NCBI RefSeq assembly: GCF_011045215.1
Contig: NZ_CP049201.1
DNA from: Escherichia coli
GTDB taxonomy: Bacteria > Pseudomonadota > Gammaproteobacteria > Enterobacterales > Enterobacteriaceae
DNA length: 64,000 bases
Strand: one strand, 5' to 3'
Shown here: in pieces, positions 1 to 12,418 of the stretch
Layout: the number at the start of each line of letters is the position of its first letter
How positions within the stretch are numbered: position 1 is the first letter of the stretch
Notes under the pieces: model-generated
Seen by the model: only the letters and a program-made list of their open reading frames with translations
What the model was told of the DNA's origin: nothing
The model's database searches: none
Translations under genes and position numbers: made by a program

Positions 1-56
1 GCACTGCTGGACACCCAGCCCACATCCTGACGCGCTTCGCTTGTCTGCTGCTTCGC

Positions 57-81
57 CGGGGCATAAAAAATTTATGCCCCG
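57..81. other. Perfect inverted repeat / stem-loop (CGGGGCATAAA-aaa-TTTATGCCCCG)
   Basis: 11-bp arms read directly; no adjacent T-tract, so not a canonical intrinsic terminator. Confidence 0.5.
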
Positions 82-560
82 ACTCTCCAGCTCCTGTATC
101 AATCAGATAATTTCACGACGTCTTCCAGCTTATTGCCATCATCGACGGTCAGGCTCTTACGCAATCCCATCGCGCTGACTGCATGTTCTCGCCGCCTCAG
201 TGCGATTTTGACGGCCTTATCTGCCACCCCATCAAATCAAAAGCCCTCACGTCTTTTTCACGCTCAGCGTGAGAAATACAGCCATTCTGTTGTGTTGCTG
301 CGACATCGTTCAGGGGATGCTATTTATCCCCTGAAACGCGGGCTGTTCCCCCGTCACCTGCGCGCAGAAAAAACGCGTTTTTTTGTGCACGCACGGATCC
401 TTGACGGATCCAGCCGCCACGGGGGCCGGAAGGGCAAAAAGTCGTTCAAAAAAATTGTGCAAATTTGTGCACTATCGTGCAGTGTGCATCGTGCTGTTTT
501 CTGCGCAAAAAACGGATGGTAAATTTGTTCGTAGCAGGGAAATTTTAATGAGCGCAAGAC

Positions 561-1091
561 ATGAAGAAAGATTCATATCCTTATTTGATTTGCATGACTG
601 TTTCAGTGCTAGGGATTATTTTCCTCTTTTACTGGTGGAGGGCAGATATCTACAGGATTACATATCTTAATTCGCGTATATCCAATTATTACATCTTGTG
701 TAGTATGGGTATGTCCTTTTTCTTCTCCTTGTTTCTGGTGAAGAGGGGGGTAGTGAAGCAAAGTGGCTGGAAAGGACTGTCGGAATACCTGAAGGTTTAT
801 GCTGGCTCTTGCATTCTTACAGGGATATTCCTGATTATTCCTCTTATGATGGTGACTTATTTTTTACCAGGAGTAACATCATCATATGTTGCACCGTATG
901 AGTATACATCTGGTAGTTCAAGAAGCTGTTCCGGAGCGTTTGTTGATGATCCCGAACTGCATAAAAATATTCTTATTTGCTATCCGTATGGTAACTATGA
1001 ATATGACAATATTATCTATGTTGAAAAGAAAACTAATGCATTGGGCGTTGTTGTGACGTATGCACAGACTGCACGAGACGATGCTGAATAA
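561..1091 (+). CDS. Hypothetical polytopic membrane protein (about 3 predicted TM helices, soluble C-terminal ~80 aa); AT-rich cargo gene
   Basis: 176-aa ORF with three long hydrophobic segments; strongly AT-rich relative to flanking DNA; no family recognised. Confidence 0.5.
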   Translation: MKKDSYPYLICMTVSVLGIIFLFYWWRADIYRITYLNSRISNYYILCSMGMSFFFSLFLVKRGVVKQSGWKGLSEYLKVYAGSCILTGIFLIIPLMMVTYFLPGVTSSYVAPYEYTSGSSRSCSGAFVDDPELHKNILICYPYGNYEYDNIIYVEKKTNALGVVVTYAQTARDDAE

Positions 1092-1282
1092 GATACTACA
1101 GATATAGTCCACTTTTTTGTTTATTTGTCGGGATAAAAACAAATTACCCCGACTCACCATGTATTAATCTTCCGCTTTAAGTTAGTATTTTAGCTGCGCT
1201 GTCCTGCTATTCAGCAAAGCGGCGTACTTTAATGCGTCCTGTGCTTTCTGGAATTTAAGTGCATAGTCAGTGGCGATTTTTT

Positions 1283-1564
1283 CTAGTTCAGCGATTCGGT
1301 TGTTTTTGGTTTCCAGCCAATCAAGTAGCGCCAATACTTCAGGATCCCGACATCCAACACTGTTACGCGTGATTTTTCATAATGTTCGTCGGCAAGAGTT
1401 CGGCCAATTTTGAAATCTCCATCATCACCATAACCGGAGCAGGCATAAACAACCTGTGCTCCAGATATTCGCTGAATTGACATTTCCTCGCCGCAAATAG
1501 GGCATTTCGGTACTGGCACAGGTGAATAACGTTCACGTAATGCCTGATAGTTGATTTCGCTCAT
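1283..1564 (-). CDS. Small zinc-ribbon protein (CPICG...CSG); probably frameshifted, coding signal continues in another frame to 1185
   Basis: 93-aa ORF with CxxC...C motif; protein-like translation continues in a second frame (DPEVLALLDWLETKNNRIAELEK...) past the stop at 1283. Confidence 0.4.
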   Translation of the reverse strand: MSEINYQALRERYSPVPVPKCPICGEEMSIQRISGAQVVYACSGYGDDGDFKIGRTLADEHYEKSRVTVLDVGILKYWRYLIGWKPKTTESLN

Positions 1565-1627
1565 TAAGTCGTTCTCCTTGTTTATGTTCTGAGGTGGAGA
1601 GCAGGGCGAACTCGCCCTGATGTTGTG

Positions 1628-1939
1628 TTATTCAGGAAATAACGCCCGGATATTTCCGGCCATCTGACTGGTTATCTGTGCGGTTGATACTGGCTGTGAT
1701 GCGGGGCGTTCTGTCCTGGTTTGTGTCACTGATAACGCTTCATCATCAGCCCATGCAGCTAGTCGGTAAGCCTCTGCCGGATTCATTTTCAGAAGTGCCA
1801 GCCCGGCCAGAAAAGCCACACGTTGGCCGCTTTTGCGGGCTTCTGGTGTAAGGCTGTCCAGCCAGGCGCATGCTTCGCCTTCGTTCTTGACGGCGGCGGG
1901 CTTCAGATAGAAACTTATCCGTCTGGTTGGTGTCGTCAT
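1628..1939 (-). CDS. parR: ParR (StbB)-like centromere-binding protein
   Basis: 103 aa from Met at 1939; resembles plasmid R1 ParR (from memory); AAGGAG RBS; starts 4 nt after parM stop. Confidence 0.55.
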   Translation of the reverse strand: MTTPTRRISFYLKPAAVKNEGEACAWLDSLTPEARKSGQRVAFLAGLALLKMNPAEAYRLAAWADDEALSVTQTRTERPASQPVSTAQITSQMAGNIRALFPE

Positions 1940-1943
1940 TGGT

Positions 1944-2903
1944 TTACTCCTTGTCCATTGCGTACAGCCCATTAACCAGAGCAAACTGTGGCACCCCGTC
2001 CGCGATGAAAGTCGCATTAACTCCGCAGGCTTCGCGGATAGCGGGTGCCACAATCTCCGCCCCGCCACCGACAACCATCACCCGCCCGTAACCCGAAAAA
2101 ACCGCCAGCGCGCGGATCACGCGTTGTTTCAGTGTTTCTTCCTTTTCACGAATAACCGCCATCAGGCTGGCGTAATGCGCGTCATTGTGGATGTGTTGGC
2201 GCAACCAGGCTTCATCATGGCGATGTTCGATAATGGTATTGGCGATGTGGTGACTGGTACGCATACCGTTAGCGGCCATCACCGACAGCACGGCACCGGC
2301 CATCAGGGAGACGCCTACGTGTGGATCGCAAAACACCTGGCTGATACCTGCCAGTTGCCCCTGAACCTTTGCCACATCCAGCGTGGTTCCGCCTAAATCC
2401 ACAATCAGCAGGGATTCAAACGGACTCATGTCAGCCAGTGCTTTAAAGCCAGCCGGAATGGATTCAGGCATAACCCGCACGTTACGGATAGTGAATGCTT
2501 CGCCGTTCTGGTACTCCACCGGGCGCATAACGTTCGCTTTTTTGCGGTTGATGTTGGCCATGTCCGGCTGTGCGTTTGTGTCGAAATACTCGCTCAGTGG
2601 CAGGGTGACAACCACATCCACCTCCTGTGGCGTGATGCCTGATTTGACCAGCGTGTGATGAATGGCGATTACATTCACATCGCTGTACTGGTATTGCGTG
2701 TCGGTCGTCTGGACAAAGCGATCGCTGACCGGATCAAAACCATAGCGCACGCCATCAAGCATGTAGTTCGCGGGCTGCATGCCACCGAACGGCGCAGATC
2801 ATTCCGACTTGAAGCTGTTCGGGCTGATGGCGTTGCGGCGTTCGCCATTCTCAGTCCATGCCAGCTTGATGTTGGTGGAGCCGTCGTCGATACAAATTTT
2901 CAT
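1944..2903 (-). pseudogene. parM: ParM (StbA)-like actin-type partition ATPase, interrupted by in-frame TGA at 2799-2801
   Basis: N-terminus MKICIDDGSTNIKLAW...NSFKSE then TGA, then in-frame continuation SAPFGGMQPANYML...; strong similarity to R1 ParM (from memory), where this position is Trp. Confidence 0.75.
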
Positions 2904-2932
2904 GTCGCTTTTCCTTATGTTGATTAATTAAT

Positions 2933-3050
2933 CGTTTACGGGATTCTGAAATCCCGTTTTTGCCTGTTTTGTGTGCGCTTCATATATCGCGGCGCGTTTT
3001 TTGCTCATTTACGGGATTTGTGAATCCCGTTTCTGTCTGTTTTTTGTTTC
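2933..3050. repeat. Two copies (2933-2975, 3006-3050) of a ~45-bp repeat, each with palindrome ACGGGATT-N4-AATCCCGT; candidate parC-like centromere/operator
   Basis: Direct repeat with internal inverted repeat, immediately upstream of the parM start. Confidence 0.6.
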
Positions 3051-4533
3051 CACTGGTCAGGCCACCCCGCAGCAGGTCTGCTTTGCGGCGGGCACGTTCA
3101 GTGGTTTCACTGATTCTCTGTGCGTGCTCTGCGTCGCGGATGGCGCGCAGCATGTCAGAAAGCACGGTAACGGGGGTTTTCATGGTGTTCTGGTCCTGCT
3201 GAAGTGTGGATGCCAGACGTGCGGCGGCTTCGAGGTCTGATGCCCCCAGCTGTTCCAGATAGCTGGCGACCGGGTTATGGCGGATCTCCGTGCTGCTTAC
3301 GCCGTGATTACGGCTCAGGCGCTGCCAGAGCTGCGTGATTCGGCTGTCCGGGCGGGTATCCGGTTTGCGTACAATTTCAAATCCCTGCGGTGCAATGATG
3401 CTGCCGTCAACGTACAGGCTGCCGCCCCGTAACAGGTGCTGCATCTGCTGTTCACCGATATGCATGCCGAGAGATTCGGCAGATTCCCGCCATTCTTTAG
3501 CGAGTAATTCGTGGTTATCAGGCAAAGGCCGCTGCTGTTTGCGGCTCTGTGTCCAGCTCTGCATTTCATCACTGCTGTTTTTTGCCTGTTTGTCACGCAG
3601 CGAACGCATCAGCGCCCGGCGTTCGTGCCGTTTCAGTGAGCGCACCCATTCATCCACATCAACGCCGTCAGGAAGCTGCGGCCACGGTGCTGGCCGTTCT
3701 TCCGGCTGTTCTGTCCCGTTGTTGTCCGTTTCCTGTACACGGGGACAGTTATTGCCACGAGTCCAAGGGGCGGCAGGGCCGCTCTGAAGGTCAAAACCAT
3801 TTTCGCGGGAGCTGTCTTCCGCTTCCGGTTTGCGTCTTACCAGCTTCCAGTTATCCGGATGCGTGCATACGCGGGAAGACTCCCCGATGAGCGGCGACCA
3901 GATCCCGTAAATCTGTACACTCTGCTCACCGTAATCGTTCAGTTCATCTGCGAGGTCGTAGGCGGTGCGAATCAGGTAGTCTTTGCGTGGAACAAGCACG
4001 CCACCCTGTTTTTCAATGTAGGTGGCAAAACACCCGGCATCAGCGGCAGCGAGTACCGCATCCATTGCGTCATCCTTCAGCCGTTGCGGGCCTTCCGGGT
4101 TGCGTGCCATCTGGCTGGCAAGGCGGCGCAGTTCACGCCACACCTGACGGGAGGGGATACCAAAGAACTGGAACTGGCGGACCCGGTGAAGGCGCGCCCA
4201 GCCGATGGCGCGTTCCACGCTCTCGGCCATTGATTTTCCGGTTTCGTGGTCAACGCGTGGCTTGCCCGTTTTCGGGTCGATGCCATCCACGGCGCGGCTG
4301 TCCAGGTTCTTTCCGATGTAGGTGGCGATGTAGCTGGTTGGCGTGCCTTTTGAGCCGTCGACGTACTCCGCCTTAAAACGCGGAGTTATGTCATCGCCCA
4401 GCTCGTGGCGGTCTTCCTGAATGGCAATATCGCAGACGTGGGACACGATGGTTTCAATCTCGTCCGGATGTGCAAAGACCATCATATGCCAGTGCACAGT
4501 GCCGTCATGGTGAGGCTCCAGCGGTGTATTCAC
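2980..4533 (-). pseudogene. HUH-motif rolling-circle replication initiator, P2 gpA-like; apparently 5'-truncated
   Basis: 517-aa ORF begins at GTG right at the motif HHDGTVHWHMMVFAHPDE, preceded by in-frame TGA; upstream 300 bp is coding-like in two other frames. Confidence 0.5.
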
Positions 4534-4686
4534 TCAGCGAGGCACACCCGCCAGCAGTGTGATGCGCCAGCATTGCCGCAAATACGGAGGCCGGGGAGTC
4601 GTAATACGCCAGCAGTGATTCGCCATGCGGTGTCAGGCAGCGCAACGCCAGCCCGTGTGGTGTTAAGTCCACGCGGTAGCAGTCGT

Positions 4687-4836
4687 CTACTGTGAAATAA
4701 AGGGTGAGCGTTGTTCTTTAGCTGCCATTTCATCAATGACGGCTCGCTCTTCGAGGGACAGCCGAAGTGCCAGTCTTGGACCTGTGGCGGTGTTACGCGG
4801 AATGCGTGATCTGGTATCGTGAAGAACTTGTTTCAT
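4687..4836 (-). CDS. Small 49-aa ORF divergent from the XRE gene (possible Cox/excisionase-like or RHH regulator)
   Basis: ATG at 4836 to TAG at 4687; below the 60-aa ORF-track cutoff; position equivalent to cox in a P2-type early region. Confidence 0.3.
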   Translation of the reverse strand: MKQVLHDTRSRIPRNTATGPRLALRLSLEERAVIDEMAAKEQRSPFISQ

Positions 4837-4878
4837 AGTGGTATATTGTGATCATCTAATAGCTCATGAAATCATTTT

Positions 4879-4896
4879 GGTATCAAAAAAGATACC
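4879..4896. promoter_or_regulatory. Palindrome GGTATC-N6-GATACC in the divergent promoter region; candidate operator
   Basis: 6-bp perfect inverted arms with A6 spacer between divergent starts at 4836 and 4912. Confidence 0.35.
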
Positions 4897-4911
4897 TGTC
4901 AAGGTTTTTGT

Positions 4912-5316
4912 ATGAAAAATGATATTGGTCAGCGGTTGCGTGAGGAAAGGGAAAGATTGGGGCTTAGTCAAGTTGCTATGAGCGACATTGGTGGAGTCAA
5001 AAAGCTAACTCAGCTTAGATATGAGAAAGGAGATAGCTTTCCTGATGCTGCGTATTTGGCAGCGCTGTCTCGTTTTGGCCTTGATGTTCAGTATGTTGTG
5101 TTGGGAATTCACTCACCTGAAACTTATAACGATGATGAGCAGGAGTTGATTACTCGCTTTCGAGCAGCTTCGTTAGATGTAAAAAACGCGGTGATCGGGG
5201 CTTTAAAAGGTGCGGGCAGTGAAAAGGAAACTCAGCCATCAGGGCGTGAGTTAAATATTTCTGGTGGTAATAACCGTATCGCTGGTCGTGACTATAACGA
5301 AACTAAGGGTAGGTGA
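4912..5316 (+). CDS. XRE-family helix-turn-helix protein (repressor-like) with C-terminal tail carrying an NNRIAGRDYNE motif
   Basis: N-terminal HTH signature (IGQRLREERERLGLSQVAMSDIGGVKKLTQLRYEKG); low GC. Confidence 0.7.
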   Translation: MKNDIGQRLREERERLGLSQVAMSDIGGVKKLTQLRYEKGDSFPDAAYLAALSRFGLDVQYVVLGIHSPETYNDDEQELITRFRAASLDVKNAVIGALKGAGSEKETQPSGRELNISGGNNRIAGRDYNETKGR

Positions 5317-5331
5317 TAGTAGGGAGGTGAC

Positions 5332-5982
5332 ATGGCCGTCAACTCAAACGGTTCAAACAATCGCGTTGCTGGGCGTGATTTTCACGAAAAGAATATTCAG
5401 ATAGAGCGATATGATGGTTCTCATACCGTCAATATCGCAATCCCTTCGAATAATGATGATGACGCTCGCCCTTTGCTTAAGGCACAGCGTAAGGAGCTAA
5501 ATAGCTTGGTTGCTGCTATTGCAGAAGCTAGCAATACTGAAGCGTTTATTATTTGGCAAAAAGTACATGCGGAGATTGGTGTAGCTGGTATTGATGATAT
5601 GACAATAAATCAATATAAAACAGCGGAGAGTTTTCTGCATGCAATGCTTGAGCGATGTAAAGATCATGATGCCTGTAAGACTCTTGTAAGTTTATTACTA
5701 CGTAACAGTGAAGACTGTGGACTTCGACAAAAACTTCTGCGGTATTGCCATATCAATTTCGGTACAGGACGTTTAAACGATCTTACTCGTTCTCAGTTAC
5801 AGTCTGCATTGTCGTGGTTAGAGCAACAATCGGTATCAAGCCACTCAGAGAATTCGACCTTACCAGAAGTTCGCCTTCGTGCTTCAGAATTAATCCGATT
5901 TTATCCAAAAGAAATAATATTCTTTATCTGCGTAGGGGTTTTGGTAGGCGGAGCCATTTCTAGGATGTTTTTTAATTTGTAA
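5332..5982 (+). CDS. Hypothetical protein, cytoplasmic domain plus single C-terminal transmembrane anchor; N-terminus repeats the NNRVAGRDFHE motif
   Basis: 216 aa; strong RBS AGGGAGGTGA 5 nt upstream; C-terminal hydrophobic segment IIFFICVGVLVGGAI; low GC. Confidence 0.6.
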   Translation: MAVNSNGSNNRVAGRDFHEKNIQIERYDGSHTVNIAIPSNNDDDARPLLKAQRKELNSLVAAIAEASNTEAFIIWQKVHAEIGVAGIDDMTINQYKTAESFLHAMLERCKDHDACKTLVSLLLRNSEDCGLRQKLLRYCHINFGTGRLNDLTRSQLQSALSWLEQQSVSSHSENSTLPEVRLRASELIRFYPKEIIFFICVGVLVGGAISRMFFNL

Positions 5983-6011
5983 TCTTACTTGAGCTAAATT
6001 GAGGCAATGAC

Positions 6012-6359
6012 ATGAAAGTAAAAAAGGTTCAACTATTAGTTGCTTTTTTATCTATGTTTTCTTTTTCCGCCGTCGCAATGCCTTTTAAAACTATTGAACG
6101 TGAGAGTTTCAATGGAGTATGGCCATTTAATACAGATGAGGTTCAATTGCAGTGTCTTGATGGTAATCCTTATGTGATGAATTTTGACGATAATAAGTTA
6201 TATGCGCTTACAGGTTTGGCTCGAATAAAAGGTAAAACATTTGGTGCGTTACCGTTAGATAACAATAATCCATTTTGGCTAGATAATGATGCCGCCCCAG
6301 GGTTAAAAAAGAATCTGGGGGACGTCACTAAGGCTGCATTTGATTTATGTGATAAGTAA
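6012..6359 (+). CDS. Small secreted/periplasmic protein with signal peptide (tentatively DUF2511/YebY-like)
   Basis: 115 aa; N-terminal signal peptide MKVKKVQLLVAFLSMFSFSAVA; family assignment from memory only. Confidence 0.55.
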   Translation: MKVKKVQLLVAFLSMFSFSAVAMPFKTIERESFNGVWPFNTDEVQLQCLDGNPYVMNFDDNKLYALTGLARIKGKTFGALPLDNNNPFWLDNDAAPGLKKNLGDVTKAAFDLCDK

Positions 6360-6364
6360 CAAAA

Positions 6365-7366
6365 ATGTCGGTTCGTAAAACTCCATCAGGTAAATGGCTT
6401 TGCGAATGTTATCCCTACGGAGCATCGGGAAAACGCATTCGTAAACAGTTTGCGACAAAAAGTGAGGCGCTCTCTTATGAGCGCCGTTTAATGAATAGTA
6501 GAGTTGGAGACGAGTTTCAAGATGGTTCTGGTCCTCGTCTTTCTGAGTTGATTGCTCGTTGGTTTGAGATGTACGGAAAAACCTTGTCCTCTGGTGCAGA
6601 GCGCAAAGTCAAACTTGAGGCGATTTGTTCTAGGCTGGGAGATCCATTTGCTTCTCAGTTTGACAAAAATATGTTTGCTACTTATCGGGAAAGAAGGCTA
6701 TCAGGAGAATGGAATCCCAAGGGGAAGAAAAAACTTAGTGAAGCAACCGTTAATCGCGAGCAGTCATATCTACATGCTGTTTTTGCCGAACTGAAGCGCC
6801 TTGGGGAGTGGTCTGGTGAAAACCCCCTGACTGGAATTCGCAAGTTTCGTGAGGAAGAAAAGGAGCTGGCGTTTCTGTATGTAGATGAGATTGAACGCCT
6901 TTTGATTGCGTGTGATGATTCACGGAATAAAGATTTGGGGGTTGTTGTCCGTATTGGGCTTGCGACTGGTGCTCGGTGGAGTGAAGCAGAAGGATTAAAG
7001 CAATCTCAAGTACTGCCCGGTCGAATCACATTTGTTAAAACTAAAGGAAAGAAGAACCGCACTGTACCGATTTCACCTCAATTGCAGGCTATGCTTCCTA
7101 AAAAACGAGGAGCGCTATTTTCACCATGTTATGAGGCTTTTGACGCTGCAATTAAGAGAGCGAAGATAGAGCTCCCTGATGGGCAATTAACTCATGTGCT
7201 ACGTCACACGTTTGCTAGTCATTTTATGATGCGGGGCGGAAATATTCTTGTGTTGCAAAAAATACTGGGGCATAGCGATATAAAAATGACTATGCGTTAT
7301 GCGCATTTTGCTCCGGGTCATTTAGAGGCTGCTGTTGAATTAAACCCTTTTGACAATAGAGGGTAA
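6365..7366 (+). CDS. int: Tyrosine recombinase, P2-type phage integrase
   Basis: 333 aa; motifs LATGARWSEA, ITFVKTKGKKNRTVPIS, HVLRHTFASHFMMRGGNILVLQKILGH, MRYAHF closely match P2 Int (from memory). Confidence 0.9.
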   Translation: MSVRKTPSGKWLCECYPYGASGKRIRKQFATKSEALSYERRLMNSRVGDEFQDGSGPRLSELIARWFEMYGKTLSSGAERKVKLEAICSRLGDPFASQFDKNMFATYRERRLSGEWNPKGKKKLSEATVNREQSYLHAVFAELKRLGEWSGENPLTGIRKFREEEKELAFLYVDEIERLLIACDDSRNKDLGVVVRIGLATGARWSEAEGLKQSQVLPGRITFVKTKGKKNRTVPISPQLQAMLPKKRGALFSPCYEAFDAAIKRAKIELPDGQLTHVLRHTFASHFMMRGGNILVLQKILGHSDIKMTMRYAHFAPGHLEAAVELNPFDNRG

Positions 7367-7472
7367 AAAGTGGCGATAAAAAGTGACAATAGATTCAAAT
7401 GGCGTCGTATAGAGCTATTTGCAAAGTTAATAAAATCATAAGGTTATGATTTATAAATGGTGGTTGATAGTT

Positions 7473-7527
7473 TTTAAAATCCCTCGGCGTTCGCGCTGTG
7501 CGGGTTCAAGTCCCGCTCCGGGTACCA
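7473..7527 (+). other. leuZ: 3' ~55 nt of tRNA-Leu (leuZ) ending in CCA: attachment-site core; not an intact tRNA
   Basis: TTTAAAATCCCTCGGCGTTCGCGCTGTGCGGGTTCAAGTCCCGCTCCGGGTACCA matches the leuZ 3' part; upstream sequence only partly tRNA-like, no acceptor-stem 5' strand. Confidence 0.8.
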
Positions 7528-7570
7528 TGGGAAAGATAAGAATAAAATCAAAGCAATAAGCAGTGTCGTG

Positions 7571-7596
7571 AAACCACCTTCGGGTGGTTTTTTTGT
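7571..7596 (+). terminator. Intrinsic terminator of the leuZ tRNA operon
   Basis: AAACCACC-TTCG-GGTGGTTT stem followed by T-run. Confidence 0.8.
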
Positions 7597-7722
7597 GCCT
7601 GCAACTTGTCGTTACACCCTCCTTAATTTTTAATCACCGGCAAAGCCACTCAAAAAGTATCTCTGATACGGACCGGCATGTAAGATAGGTGCTGGCGAGT
7701 TGAGATCCACAAGGAAAAGCGT

Positions 7723-8388
7723 ATGAAAACGGGACCGTTAAACGAAAGTGAGTTGGAATGGCTGGACGATATTCTGACCAAATACAACACTGACCACGCC
7801 ATCCTTGATGTGGCGGAGCTGGACGGTTTATTGACGGCAGTGTTGAGTTCTCCGCAAGAGATTGAACCGGCACAGTGGCTGGTTGCCGTGTGGGGTGGGG
7901 CTGACTATGTGCCGCGCTGGGCGTCAGAGAAAGAGATGACGCGCTTTATGAACCTGGCTTTTCAACATATGGCCGATACCGCAGAGCGTCTGAACGAATT
8001 CCCGGAGCAGTTTGAGCCGTTATTCGGCTTGCGAGAAGTTGATGGCAGCGAGCTGACGATTGTTGAGGAGTGGTGCTTTGGCTATATGCGGGGCGTGGCA
8101 CTTTCTGACTGGTCAACATTGCCCGATTCGTTAAAACCAGCGCTGGAGGCGATAGCGCTGCACGGTACTGAGGAAAACTTCGAGCGGGTAGAGAAGATGT
8201 CGCCAGAAGCGTTTGAAGAGAGCGTAGATGCCATTCGACTGGCGGCGCTTGATTTACATGCATACTGGATGGCGCATCCGCAGGAAAAAGCTGTTCAGCA
8301 ACCGATCAAAGCAGAAGAGAAACCGGGGCGTAACGATCCTTGTCCGTGCGGCAGTGGTAAGAAATTTAAGCAGTGCTGCCTGCATTAA
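7723..8388 (+). CDS. yecA: UPF0149 protein YecA with C-terminal SEC-C zinc motif
   Basis: 221 aa; C-terminal [13 protein letters not shown]; K-12 synteny. Confidence 0.9.
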
Positions 8389-8449
8389 GAAGTCAAATTG
8401 GGTGTCAGCGTTAATTCTGGCACCCAATAAGGAATTTGAGGCTATCTAA

Positions 8450-9661
8450 TCACCCCACTTCTGGTAACAACCCTGCCGCAATCAAAAATTGCACGCCAAT
8501 CACAGCAATACCACAGAGAAACACCACCACCAGCGCCGGACGACCACCTTTGACCCGGTAACCCGCTTGAGGATTGTGCCTTCTGCTTTGCCAGGTCAAC
8601 AGCGAAGGGATAATCAATGCCAGTACCGCCAGCGCCACACCGGCGTAACCCAGCGCCATCACAAATCCTCGTGGATAAAACAGTGCAAACGCCAACGGCG
8701 GCAGAAAGGTAATTGCTCCAGTTTGCAATCGTCCACCAACGGTATTTGAACGCTGAAACAAATCAGCCAGATAATCAAATAAGCCTAACGCAACGCCGAG
8801 AAATGACGTGGCGAGGGCTAAATCAGCAAATAAATGCACTGCCAGCTCAACATGCGGAGAGGCCACCATTTCGCGTAACGCCTGTAACAGCCCGTTTAAT
8901 CCGGCATGATTAGCCAGCAATCCCATAAAGGTTGTTGAATCAATGCTGCCAAGCGTCGCCACCTGCCAGAAAATATATGCCACCAGGGGGATCGCACTAC
9001 CGATTATAAACACCCAGCGTAGCTTACGAATGTTGCCATCCATATAGCTGACAATACTCGGCACGCTACCGTGAAAACCAAACGACGTAAAAATCACCGG
9101 GATTGCAGACAGTGCCAGCCCCTGTTGCAACGGCAGGGTTAAAAGATTCACTTTGTGAATATGCGGTAGCAGCAATACCAACATCACCACCAAAAAAATA
9201 ATTTTGGCGCTGAACAGAAAACGGTTAAATAAATCGACCAGCGATGTTCCAACACAAACCACGCCACCGGCAACAAAAGTGAACAACAGCACGCCAGCGG
9301 TTGCCGACATTGAAATACCTGTCCAGTCGCTGATGCTGGAGGCCAACAATTCACCGGCACCGCTGATGTATGCCGCAGTCAGAGCATACATTAAGAACAT
9401 CATACTGAAGCCCGTCAGCCATTGACCGTAGCGTCCCAGATAGCGTTTTGCCAGCGTGCCCAGACCGGTATCTGCCGGAACATGCTGGTACACCTCCAGC
9501 AGTAATAGCGCCGTGTAGCACATCAACGCCCAAAGCCCAATCAACAAGATTAACGTAACGCTAAAACCAACACCGGCCGCAGCCAGCGGCATTGCCAGCA
9601 TGCCTGCGCCAATTGTGGTTCCCGCCACGATAAAAACACTTCCCAGGGTTCTGTTTTTCAC
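8450..9661 (-). CDS. tyrP: Tyrosine-specific transport protein
   Basis: 403 aa polytopic permease; synteny. Confidence 0.95.
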
Positions 9662-9752
9662 GCTTTCTTCTGTCCTGACGATCTTTATGAGTGATATCTG
9701 CGGCGCAGGTTAAGGCATAACGGCTGCTTCGTCAAACCGACGTTACATATGG

Positions 9753-9770
9753 TGTAAATATAAATGTACA
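9753..9770. promoter_or_regulatory. TyrR box upstream of tyrP (TGTAAA-N6-TGTACA)
   Basis: One mismatch to TGTAAA-N6-TTTACA consensus, in tyrP promoter region. Confidence 0.5.
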
Positions 9771-9852
9771 ATAAAAAGCATTCAGTCCTGCGCTGGCGCA
9801 AAGTCTTCATAAGCGGCAATCGCTACGCTAGGCTTTTTTTTGAGGAGGAACG

Positions 9853-10092
9853 ATGGACTCTATTCACGGTCATGAAGTGTTAAATATGATGATTGAATCA
9901 GGCGAGCAATATACGCATGCCAGTCTGGAAGCTGCGATTAAAGCGCGTTTTGGTGAACAGGCACGTTTTCACACTTGCTCGGCAGAAGGGATGACAGCGG
10001 GAGAGCTGGTAGCGTTTCTGGCAGCAAAAGGCAAATTGATAGCTTCAGAAGAAGGTTTTTCGACCGATCAGAGTAAGATTTGCCGTCACTGA
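9853..10092 (+). CDS. yecH: Small protein YecH
   Basis: 79 aa; synteny. Confidence 0.85.
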   Translation: MDSIHGHEVLNMMIESGEQYTHASLEAAIKARFGEQARFHTCSAEGMTAGELVAFLAAKGKLIASEEGFSTDQSKICRH

Positions 10093-10129
10093 TTTGAAAC
10101 GGCGGCAGAAAACCTGCCGCCTGAGAGCA

Positions 10130-10627
10130 TTAGTTTTGTGTGTCGAGGGTAGAGAGTTCTTTGTCGATAAAATACAGACCTTCGCCGCTTTTGCCTGCCA
10201 GGCTTAATTTATCAATAATCGATTTGAACAGTTTCTCTTCTTCATGCTGCTCAGAAACATACCATTGCAGGAAATTAAATGTTGGGTAGTCCTGATTGGT
10301 CATTGCAGCATGAGCCAGTTCGTTAATTTTCTGGGTGATTAATTGTTCGTGTTTATAGGTTTCCTGGAATAATTCATCAAGTGAGGAATATTCAGCAAAC
10401 GGAGATTCAACGGTATTAATACGCGGTAAATTGCCGGTATCAGTCAGGTAATCAAACAGACGCTGCATATGCGTCATCTCTTCCTGGGCGTGACGGCGCA
10501 GGAACGCGGCAGCACCTTCGAAGGTATGATAGCTGCACCAGGCGCTCATTTGCTGATAAAGCAGTGAAGAGTACAGTTCCAGGTTCATCTGCTCATTAAG
10601 TTTTTCAATCATTTCTGGTTTCAGCAT
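10130..10627 (-). CDS. ftnA: Ferritin
   Basis: 165 aa from [13 protein letters not shown]; ORF-track start is 5 codons upstream. Confidence 0.95.
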
Positions 10628-10797
10628 GATAGTGCTCCACAAAGGTTATATTTGTTGCTGTGGCGTCACTATAATTTGTTATTTTATTATTTGCAAAAGG
10701 TAAAATATAAACTTCAATTATTAAAAATACGAATGGGAATAAAACGCATTACCGCTATTTCTTTAATCAGCGAAGATCCCCTCGCTGATTAAAATAT

Positions 10798-11121
10798 TTA
10801 GAGAAAGACAGGGAAGGCGGAATGATGGCACTGATATGACAAAGTGAATTCCGTATTCAAACATAAGGAACCCGCAAAAAGGCTACAGTTGCCTACTGGC
10901 TGACCAAAGGGGATCGCGTGGGTATAGCCTTCCTGCTGGCATGCGCGATCGGCGATCCCGCGACTGACATAACGATCGGTATGGGCATGCTGCAAAAAAG
11001 CCTGGTCATAAACCAACCGTACAATACCTGTTGCCGCGTCAACTTCGCTCACATGGGCCTGGCGAGTAACTGTACACCCCGCCAGCGTTATTAATGAAAG
11101 AGTCAGAATCAGAAGTCTCAT
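10798..11121 (-). CDS. yecR: Lipoprotein YecR
   Basis: 107 aa; signal peptide with lipobox LAGC. Confidence 0.85.
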   Translation of the reverse strand: MRLLILTLSLITLAGCTVTRQAHVSEVDAATGIVRLVYDQAFLQHAHTDRYVSRGIADRACQQEGYTHAIPFGQPVGNCSLFAGSLCLNTEFTLSYQCHHSAFPVFL

Positions 11122-11285
11122 GGTCCAGCCAGAAGAGTAAGAGAAAGCACTATTTTACGCGTTACAGCGCTGCGACAATGGCCGGAAAAGACGCCTGGCA
11201 GGCGCTATTTCTTGCCATCTGTAGGTGTCAGAAATAGGGGGGCTGTTTTTGGATTATCATTTTTATAACATTAAAGGGGTATTTA

Positions 11286-11301
11286 TGTGATTTGTATCAC
11301 A
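11286..11301. promoter_or_regulatory. CRP binding site (TGTGA-N6-TCACA) upstream of azuC
   Basis: Perfect match to CRP half-sites. Confidence 0.6.
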
Positions 11302-11383
11302 TAAAGATTGATTTTTGTGATGGTTGTCATATTATAAGCGCAAAGACAATAACACCTGTATAACAAATGGTCGGAGTGCCGCG

Positions 11384-11470
11384 ATGAAACTGCGCAAAAT
11401 CCTGAAAAGTATGTTCAATAACTATTGCAAGACGTTCAAAGACGTACCGCCAGGCAATATGTTCCGATAA
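11384..11470 (+). CDS. azuC: 28-aa small protein AzuC (dual-function AzuCR/IsrB RNA)
   Basis: ATG...TAA encodes MKLRKILKSMFNNYCKTFKDVPPGNMFR; absent from ORF track (<60 aa). Confidence 0.85.
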   Translation: MKLRKILKSMFNNYCKTFKDVPPGNMFR

Positions 11471-11474
11471 CAAA

Positions 11475-11499
11475 AAACCTGCTCCGGCAGGTTTTTTTG
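11475..11499 (+). terminator. Intrinsic terminator of azuC
   Basis: ACCTGC-TCCG-GCAGGT stem then T7. Confidence 0.8.
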
Positions 11500-11584
11500 T
11501 GTCCTGATGACGGTGGATGTGACTATCGTTGAAGATGTGAAGCCGCTACTATAACGGTTTTCAAAATGCTATCAGGAGTTTACG

Positions 11585-11836
11585 ATGTCCCAGCCGCTGA
11601 ATGCCGATCAGGAACTGGTTTCTGATGTGGTTGCTTGCCAGTTGGTTATCAAACAAATTCTGGATGTTCTCGATGTAATCGCGCCCGTTGAAGTTCGCGA
11701 AAAAATGTCCAGCCAGCTGAAGAATATCGACTTTACTAACCATCCCGCCGCCGCAGACCCGGTCACCATGCGGGCAATCCAAAAAGCCATCGCGCTGATT
11801 GAACTCAAGTTTACCCCACAGGGCGAATCCCATTAA
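11585..11836 (+). CDS. yecJ: Small protein YecJ
   Basis: 83 aa; synteny. Confidence 0.85.
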
Positions 11837-11914
11837 AAAACCGCTGCTTCAAAAAGATGAGGCAGCGGTTTCTCAAAAACTTCATCGGCGCAATGCATTA
11901 GCGCCGATGTATGA

Positions 11915-12418
11915 TCAATGCAGCTGATGCGACACGACATTCAGAACATGTTGGTCGGTCTGCACTGGGCACATACCCGCAAGTTTCGCACTGCGCACTT
12001 CATCAAGAATGGTTTGCAGCAACAGGCCATCATGCTGCTGTTCTTTTTCCAGATCGCGCAGGAAATTGACGGTTGAATCATCATTCAGTTCTTTCGCTTC
12101 ATCGGCTAACTGCGCCAGCGTGCTTGAACGTTGCTCGTATTCTTCCATCGTTTTTTGGAACAGTTCTTCCAGAGAGTTCAGTTTTTCACCAGGAACATCA
12201 ATGGCTTTAACGATGGGGGTAGCGCCGACACTCTTCATAAAGTTAAACATGCGCATCATTTGGGTCACATTACTCTGTGCCTGGGCGCGAAGGAAAGTGG
12301 CGGTGCCGTTCAGACTCTGTTCAGAACACCAGTTACTCAGGTGAAGGTAGAGATTGGATGCGTAAAACTCGCGGTTCATTTGAGAGTTGAGTTTGAGAAG
12401 CATTCCAGCGGTTGCCAT
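11915..12418 (-). CDS. ftnB: Ferritin-like protein FtnB
   Basis: 167 aa ferritin-fold. Confidence 0.9.

Follow-up and report, generated by a model that had tools for sequence, protein, structure and literature searches.

The Ea22 protein of phage lambda is a tetramer that favours lysogeny, with a coiled coil between a short N-terminal domain and a C-terminal domain (PMC10834534, PMC7093339); the pro-lysogenic activity has been shown for the Ea22 proteins of lambda and of Stx phages, i.e. for lambdoid phages (PMC7093339, PMC10834534). The lambda gene is located in the lambdoid exo-xis region, whereas a P2-like version of the family is found in the gpA-portal hotspot; for P2-like phages, the gpA-gpQ interval has been described as a gene-turnover hotspot (PMC9122126). 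In phage P88_4B11 (Xuanwuvirus, Peduoviridae), the P2-like version is gp56 (YP_009877445.1; 196 aa), which follows gpA, ParM and a ParR-like gene and precedes the portal gene or the genome end.

The window, i.e. the whole stretch of 64,000 nucleotides of Escherichia coli DNA analyzed here (contig NZ_CP049201.1), contains a P88/P2-like (Xuanwuvirus) prophage that adjoins yecA and tyrP, with the gene order gpA, ParM, ParR-like, Ea22-like, cassette, portal; this order fits that of cargo in the P2-like gpA-gpQ hotspot, next to cos, and places the Ea22-like gene at the position of P88_4B11 gp56. We consider the Ea22-like locus, with a probability of about 0.93, to be a doubly damaged Ead/Ea22-like accessory pseudogene in the gpA-portal region of this prophage, which many strains have inherited in this state and which is neither an error nor a case of recoding. 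Its two lesions are a 1-bp deletion in a G run and a 3' truncation by a cassette. The features of the locus and of the neighboring prophage genes are summarized in Table 1.

Table 1. Features of the Ead/Ea22-like locus and of neighboring prophage genes (positions are those of the window)
Feature	Position	Strand	Remarks
Ead/Ea22-like pseudogene, whole remnant (start codon to second-frame stop)	1182..1564	minus	PF13935 at 103.9 bits with one G restored
Frame-A ORF, 93 aa, MSEINYQ...CPICGEE...YACSG...TESLN	1283..1564	minus	TAG at 1283-1285
Frame-B segment, DPEVLALLDWLE...TAQLKY	1185..1346	minus	Stop 1182-1184; PF13935 profile positions 66-111
G3 run, site of the 1-bp deletion	1346..1348	minus (CCC on plus)	Sole gap column in alignment
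Shine-Dalgarno-like AAGGAG	1574..1579	minus	9 nt upstream of ATG at 1564; read from sequence
3' truncation breakpoint	1194..1195		RTAQ-QTNN becomes RTAQ-LKY-stop; BLAST against L005 (O26:H11, full-length gene), protein P0001
712-bp cassette, 38% GC	483..1194		Replaces L005 3008-3265
Cassette gene, 176-aa hypothetical membrane protein (WP_000711113.1-like)	561..1091	plus	Convergent with pseudogene
ParM gene nonsense mutation, W35 to stop (TGG to TGA)	2799-2801 (gene 1944-2903)	minus	Splits gene into 34-aa and 278-aa ORFs
1361-bp deletion, removes 5' part of gpA	junction ~4519-4520		Relative to intact O103:H2 prophage; leaves 517-aa ORF
3365-bp deletion, early genes up to repressor region	junction ~4698-4706		Relative to intact O103:H2 prophage

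The 93-aa ORF is authentic family sequence in residues 1-73, and its residues 74-93 are out-of-frame read-through to the TAG codon. The second frame of the minus strand reads DPEVLALLDWLETKNNRIAELEKIATDYALKFQKAQDALKYAALLNSRTAQLKY to the stop at 1182-1184 (with other end points, DPEVLALLDWLETKNN...TAQLKY) and covers the conserved DP-V-LLD motif and the first part of the coiled coil. When searched against the Pfam profile PF13935 (Ead_Ea22; gathering score, 27 bits), the 93-aa ORF alone scored 55.5 bits (residues 2-72, profile positions 1-63) and the second-frame peptide alone 36.8 bits (E 7e-9, profile positions 66-111); since each piece by itself passes the gathering score, the coding signal in both frames is not a chance signal. 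The restored 127-aa protein, with one G added, gave a single stretch at 103.9 bits, compared to 109 bits for the full-length protein P0001; an NCBIfam scan of the restored protein yielded no family-level match. We read the 93-aa ORF and the second-frame peptide as the two halves of one Ead/Ea22-like gene, and the orthologous loci in RefSeq are annotated as 'ead/Ea22-like family protein', pseudo. The subfamily-invariant residues C21, C24, C42, H61, D74, P75, V77, L80 and L81 are all encoded, those from D74 onward in the second frame only. No uninterrupted frame across the PF13935 domain was found, as the domain is broken by the 1-bp deletion at 1346-1348 and by the 3' truncation at 1194/1195. 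The initial annotation had described, correctly also in its coordinates, a coding signal that carries on in a second frame over 1182-1564, and had placed the junction near a GGG/CCC run at about 1341-1350, where the CCC was indeed found on the plus strand at 1346-1348. A separate translation of the 50-aa second-frame ORF (TTG at 1334) was considered and rejected; this ORF is not preceded by a Shine-Dalgarno sequence, and its peptide merely continues the family domain.

The closest intact homologue, P0001 (196 aa; 97% identical; 486 member sequences), is represented in O26:H11 by WP_001289969.1, and P88_4B11 gp56 is 98% identical; both proteins are 97-98% identical to the window copy over its retained part. 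The window copy differs from gp56 in that the last ~72 codons are swapped for the 712-bp cassette and in that one G is lost at codons 73-74. The full length of about 125 aa that had been expected initially therefore agrees with that of the immediate in-frame allele (127 aa) alone, whereas the true full-length gene encodes 196 aa. In an alignment of 23 family members, the N-terminal ~83 residues are strongly conserved and are followed by variable coiled-coil and C-terminal domains; the C-terminal domains of the aligned proteins are highly mosaic. An AlphaFold model of the 196-aa protein (mean pLDDT 66) predicts a CxxC turn, then a beta hairpin, a helix with H61, a long helix (75-123) and a small alpha/beta C-terminal part. 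According to this modelled and aligned domain layout, the frameshift falls precisely on the boundary that separates the N-terminal module from the coiled coil.

The gene had been labelled a zinc-ribbon gene, and this label is plausible for the N-terminal module: the CxxC (residues 21 and 24), C42 and H61 are invariant in the 23-member alignment, and in the model the CxxC is placed ahead of the beta hairpin and H61 in a helix (pLDDT of the Cys3His region, ~58-76). However, all zinc-ribbon matches in Pfam were below the cut-off (E 0.005-0.14), a sequence search of the PDB retrieved no relative, and a Foldseek search of the PDB with the AlphaFold model, which is of moderate quality, gave no match at E below 0.1.

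Lambda Ea22 (NP_040612.1; L015 1351-1896) belongs to the same Pfam family; its first 11 residues are identical at 10 of 11 positions, and its LLDE-plus-coiled-coil region is clearly homologous (profile-profile probability 99.4%, E 2e-21). In contrast to the P2-like protein, it does not contain the ~60-residue Cys-Cys-Cys-His module (residues 12-72 of the P2-like protein), and its C-terminal domain is unrelated to that of the P2-like version. By analogy with lambda Ea22, and by inference only, the ancestral P2-like protein may have been a similar oligomeric accessory regulator. Lambda Ea22 is the only structurally studied member of the family, and it is without the CxxC...C...H module that is invariant in the aligned Ead/Ea22-like proteins; this subfamily with an invariant Cys-Cys-Cys-His module missing from lambda Ea22 is of modest general interest.

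When the window was aligned with close loci of three E. coli strains (M8, W13-16 and UTAK-6), a single gap column was observed, located in the G run: M8 and W13-16 read GTC GGG GAT CCT, whereas the window and UTAK-6 read GTC GGG ATC CT. All complete RefSeq genomes of E. coli were searched with short queries centered on the G run; the exact GGGG 64-mer was found in 174 complete genomes and the exact GGG 63-mer in 21. The latter are mostly O103:H2, O45:H2 and related Shiga-toxigenic strains, and are the same 21 genomes that best match window positions 1-12000 among complete genomes.

The annotation was read for two of the GGG genomes, those of UTAK-6 and of O103:H2 strain 129, in which RefSeq (PGAP) calls the GGG allele 'ead/Ea22-like family protein; frameshifted; incomplete'; the two loci (ABH545_RS18160 and ACZ5M0_RS12995, respectively; 'frameshifted; incomplete; missing C-terminus') resemble the window in the gene, the truncation by the cassette and the GGG frameshift. 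They differ in that the shifted frame runs to 111 aa in their lineage and to 93 aa in the window lineage, where a change of CTG to CTA, synonymous in the true frame, makes a TAG in the shifted frame, i.e. the terminating TAG is specific to the window's lineage. Furthermore, ParM and gpA are intact in the UTAK-6 and strain 129 prophages, unlike in the window. Over window positions 500-2250, only about 11 positions differ from the O103:H2 GGG lineage, and the flanks are more divergent; the low divergence around the gene is as expected if the deletion arose once and other parts of the prophage were later exchanged in a mosaic fashion. Three substitutions in the gene are private to the window lineage; each lies downstream of the shift, and the 216 nt preceding it contain no such change. 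A relaxation of selection following the frameshift was considered as an explanation, but the substitution numbers are too small for significance.

The 3' truncation was assigned by comparison with the full-length locus of O26:H11, in which the cassette replaces 258 bp, i.e. the last 220 nt of the gene and a 38-nt spacer, so that the last ~72 codons are missing from the window copy. The GC content of the cassette is 0.38, compared to 0.55 for the flanking prophage DNA. For the 176-aa protein encoded in the cassette, no Pfam or PADLOC family was found, and its C-terminal half alone matches phrog_1416 (function not known). PADLOC also gave no match for the Ea22-like, ParM and ParR-like proteins, hence no recognizable anti-phage defence system was found among the four proteins searched in the gpA-portal interval. 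Given its place in a defence hotspot, the 176-aa cassette gene could be a putative uncharacterized exclusion gene.

When the truncation junction was searched among complete genomes, the cassette junction was found in 76 and the full-length junction in 162, and the cassette was covered in all 21 GGG genomes. This nesting (162 full-length; 76 with the cassette; 21 with the cassette and G3), which is a comparison of counts and not a formal phylogeny, suggests that the truncation came first and the frameshift second.

The two lesions are best explained by stepwise decay. The lesions themselves, where they lie and how they are distributed among genomes are shown directly, whereas their order, slippage as the cause and the loss of function are inferred. 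The ancestral gene would have encoded a 196-aa protein with the N-terminal Cys-Cys-Cys-His module (residues ~1-70), a long helix or coiled coil starting from DP-V-LLD (residue 74) and a small C-terminal domain. In a first step, a cassette exchange, explained by the location in a documented turnover hotspot, would have swapped the last ~72 codons for the 712-bp AT-rich segment with the membrane-protein gene, leaving a 127-aa ORF. In a second step, replication slippage would have deleted one G of the GGGG at codons 73-74. Translation now leaves the true frame at the boundary of the N-terminal module and the coiled coil, adds 20 out-of-frame residues and ends at the TAG, and the broken allele is passed on vertically. 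The initial annotation had offered a decay mutation as one of two readings, and this reading stands: the lesion, the loss of one base from a GGGG run, is inherited within a lineage, and its neighbors in the prophage are damaged as well.

The 93-aa remnant, without the coiled coil, is most likely inactive. Its conserved N-terminal module is complete and its Shine-Dalgarno sequence good, and it may have residual or altered activity; that the product, as a Cys3His module released from the coiled coil, is still synthesized and active in its own right is considered very unlikely. If it were, the 93-aa product might, for example, interact with the partner of full-length Ea22-like proteins encoded by co-resident lambdoid prophages, and such activity could account for the persistence of the broken allele in two lineages of E. 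coli.

An error of sequencing or assembly, in which the source genome has GGGG and a G was dropped from the window at the homopolymer, would be in line with the typical indel errors of some long-read platforms and with the several apparent decay mutations that were flagged initially in the same window. However, a run of three to four G is short for homopolymer errors, and the neighboring ParM lesion is a base substitution and not an indel. A protein identical to the 93-aa product is recorded as P0121, 'putative EA22-like protein [Escherichia coli]', within a cluster of frameshift products, and the identical product is indexed in 72 blocks of a public assembly collection. Eight contigs were fetched, from different samples and from NCBI assemblies as well as Logan read-set assemblies; all eight encode the 93-aa product, with 99.85-99.89% identity to the window over 4.5 kb and 100% identity over the 456-nt gene region, GGG included, and the ParM substitution is co-inherited in them. 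The GGG allele is present also in the 21 complete genomes of the second lineage. Because identical independent assemblies share both the GGG and the ParM base-substitution lesion, the mutation is inherited and not an error of a single assembly. Judged by these assemblies, which support the homopolymer length in the window indirectly, the GGG is a real mutation rather than a read error, and we regard an error as very unlikely.

A programmed -1 ribosomal frameshift, in which the ribosome slips one base back on the GGG and the GGG allele yields a 127-aa protein, had also been proposed in the initial annotation. It would account for authentic family sequence in both frames and for a needed shift of exactly -1 at a short G run. 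However, the site (GUC GGG AUC) does not contain an X XXY YYZ slippery heptamer, and the Gly tRNA would face CGG after a -1 slip. Nor was downstream RNA structure beyond that of shuffled sequences detected, the 93 nt folding at an MFE of -9.7 kcal/mol compared to a shuffle mean of -10.9 (z +0.47). Close alleles are mostly in frame (174 exact GGGG against 21 GGG), and in all 23 aligned, more distant family members a single frame runs through the site, with D74 and P75 invariant. With the 3' truncation of the gene, and with its location in a prophage damaged by a nonsense mutation and by deletions, the programmed shift proposed initially is not borne out and is held to be extremely improbable.

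Phase-variable homopolymer tracts are typically seven or more residues long and show frequent, scattered length changes. A functional shortened gene, in which the 93-aa N-terminal Cys3His module is kept as useful, or a reversible on/off switch at the G run, would be compatible with the break exactly at the predicted domain boundary, with the intact start codon and Shine-Dalgarno sequence, and with the persistence of the GGG allele in two lineages, but is scarcely credible given that the run of three to four G is far shorter than known phase-variable tracts, that the G3 carriers form a single group of close relatives (clade-like, not scattered), that the out-of-frame tail is not conserved (93 aa and 111 aa between lineages), and that the surrounding prophage genes are likewise decaying.

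The locus is thus an ordinary lineage-inherited pseudogene with two lesions, whose frameshift is already annotated in RefSeq; its correct annotation is a single pseudogene (ead/Ea22-like, frameshifted and 3'-truncated), rather than a pair of small genes or a site of recoding. The locus neatly illustrates the stepwise decay of a prophage, and how an exchange of cassettes in the P2-like gpA-portal hotspot can truncate an adjacent gene.

A few broken products (P0010 and P0026) were included among the best homologue matches. In the Shigella boydii copy (P0010, 158 aa), two frame changes unlike that of the window (…YACSVMVMMEISKLAELLLTNIMKKSRV…) and another premature end seem to be present; the gene seems to have undergone separate decay in this lineage.

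Decay of the neighboring prophage genes includes the ParM nonsense mutation, whose 34-aa/278-aa split is also found in the eight close relatives from public assemblies, and the two deletions in gpA and in the early region (Table 1), the junctions of which share only short microhomologies, of 2 bp and of ~5 bp (imperfect). The eight relatives with the Ea22 frameshift still encode a 946-aa gpA product, therefore the gpA and early-region deletions are newer than the frameshift.

A perfect hairpin (CAGGGCGA-GT-TCGCCCTG; 8-bp stem, 2-nt loop) is located at window positions 1602-1619 on the minus strand, just past the stop codon of the ParR-like gene and before the start of the Ea22-like gene; it is not followed by a T run, and could be a putative terminator-like or protein-binding element.
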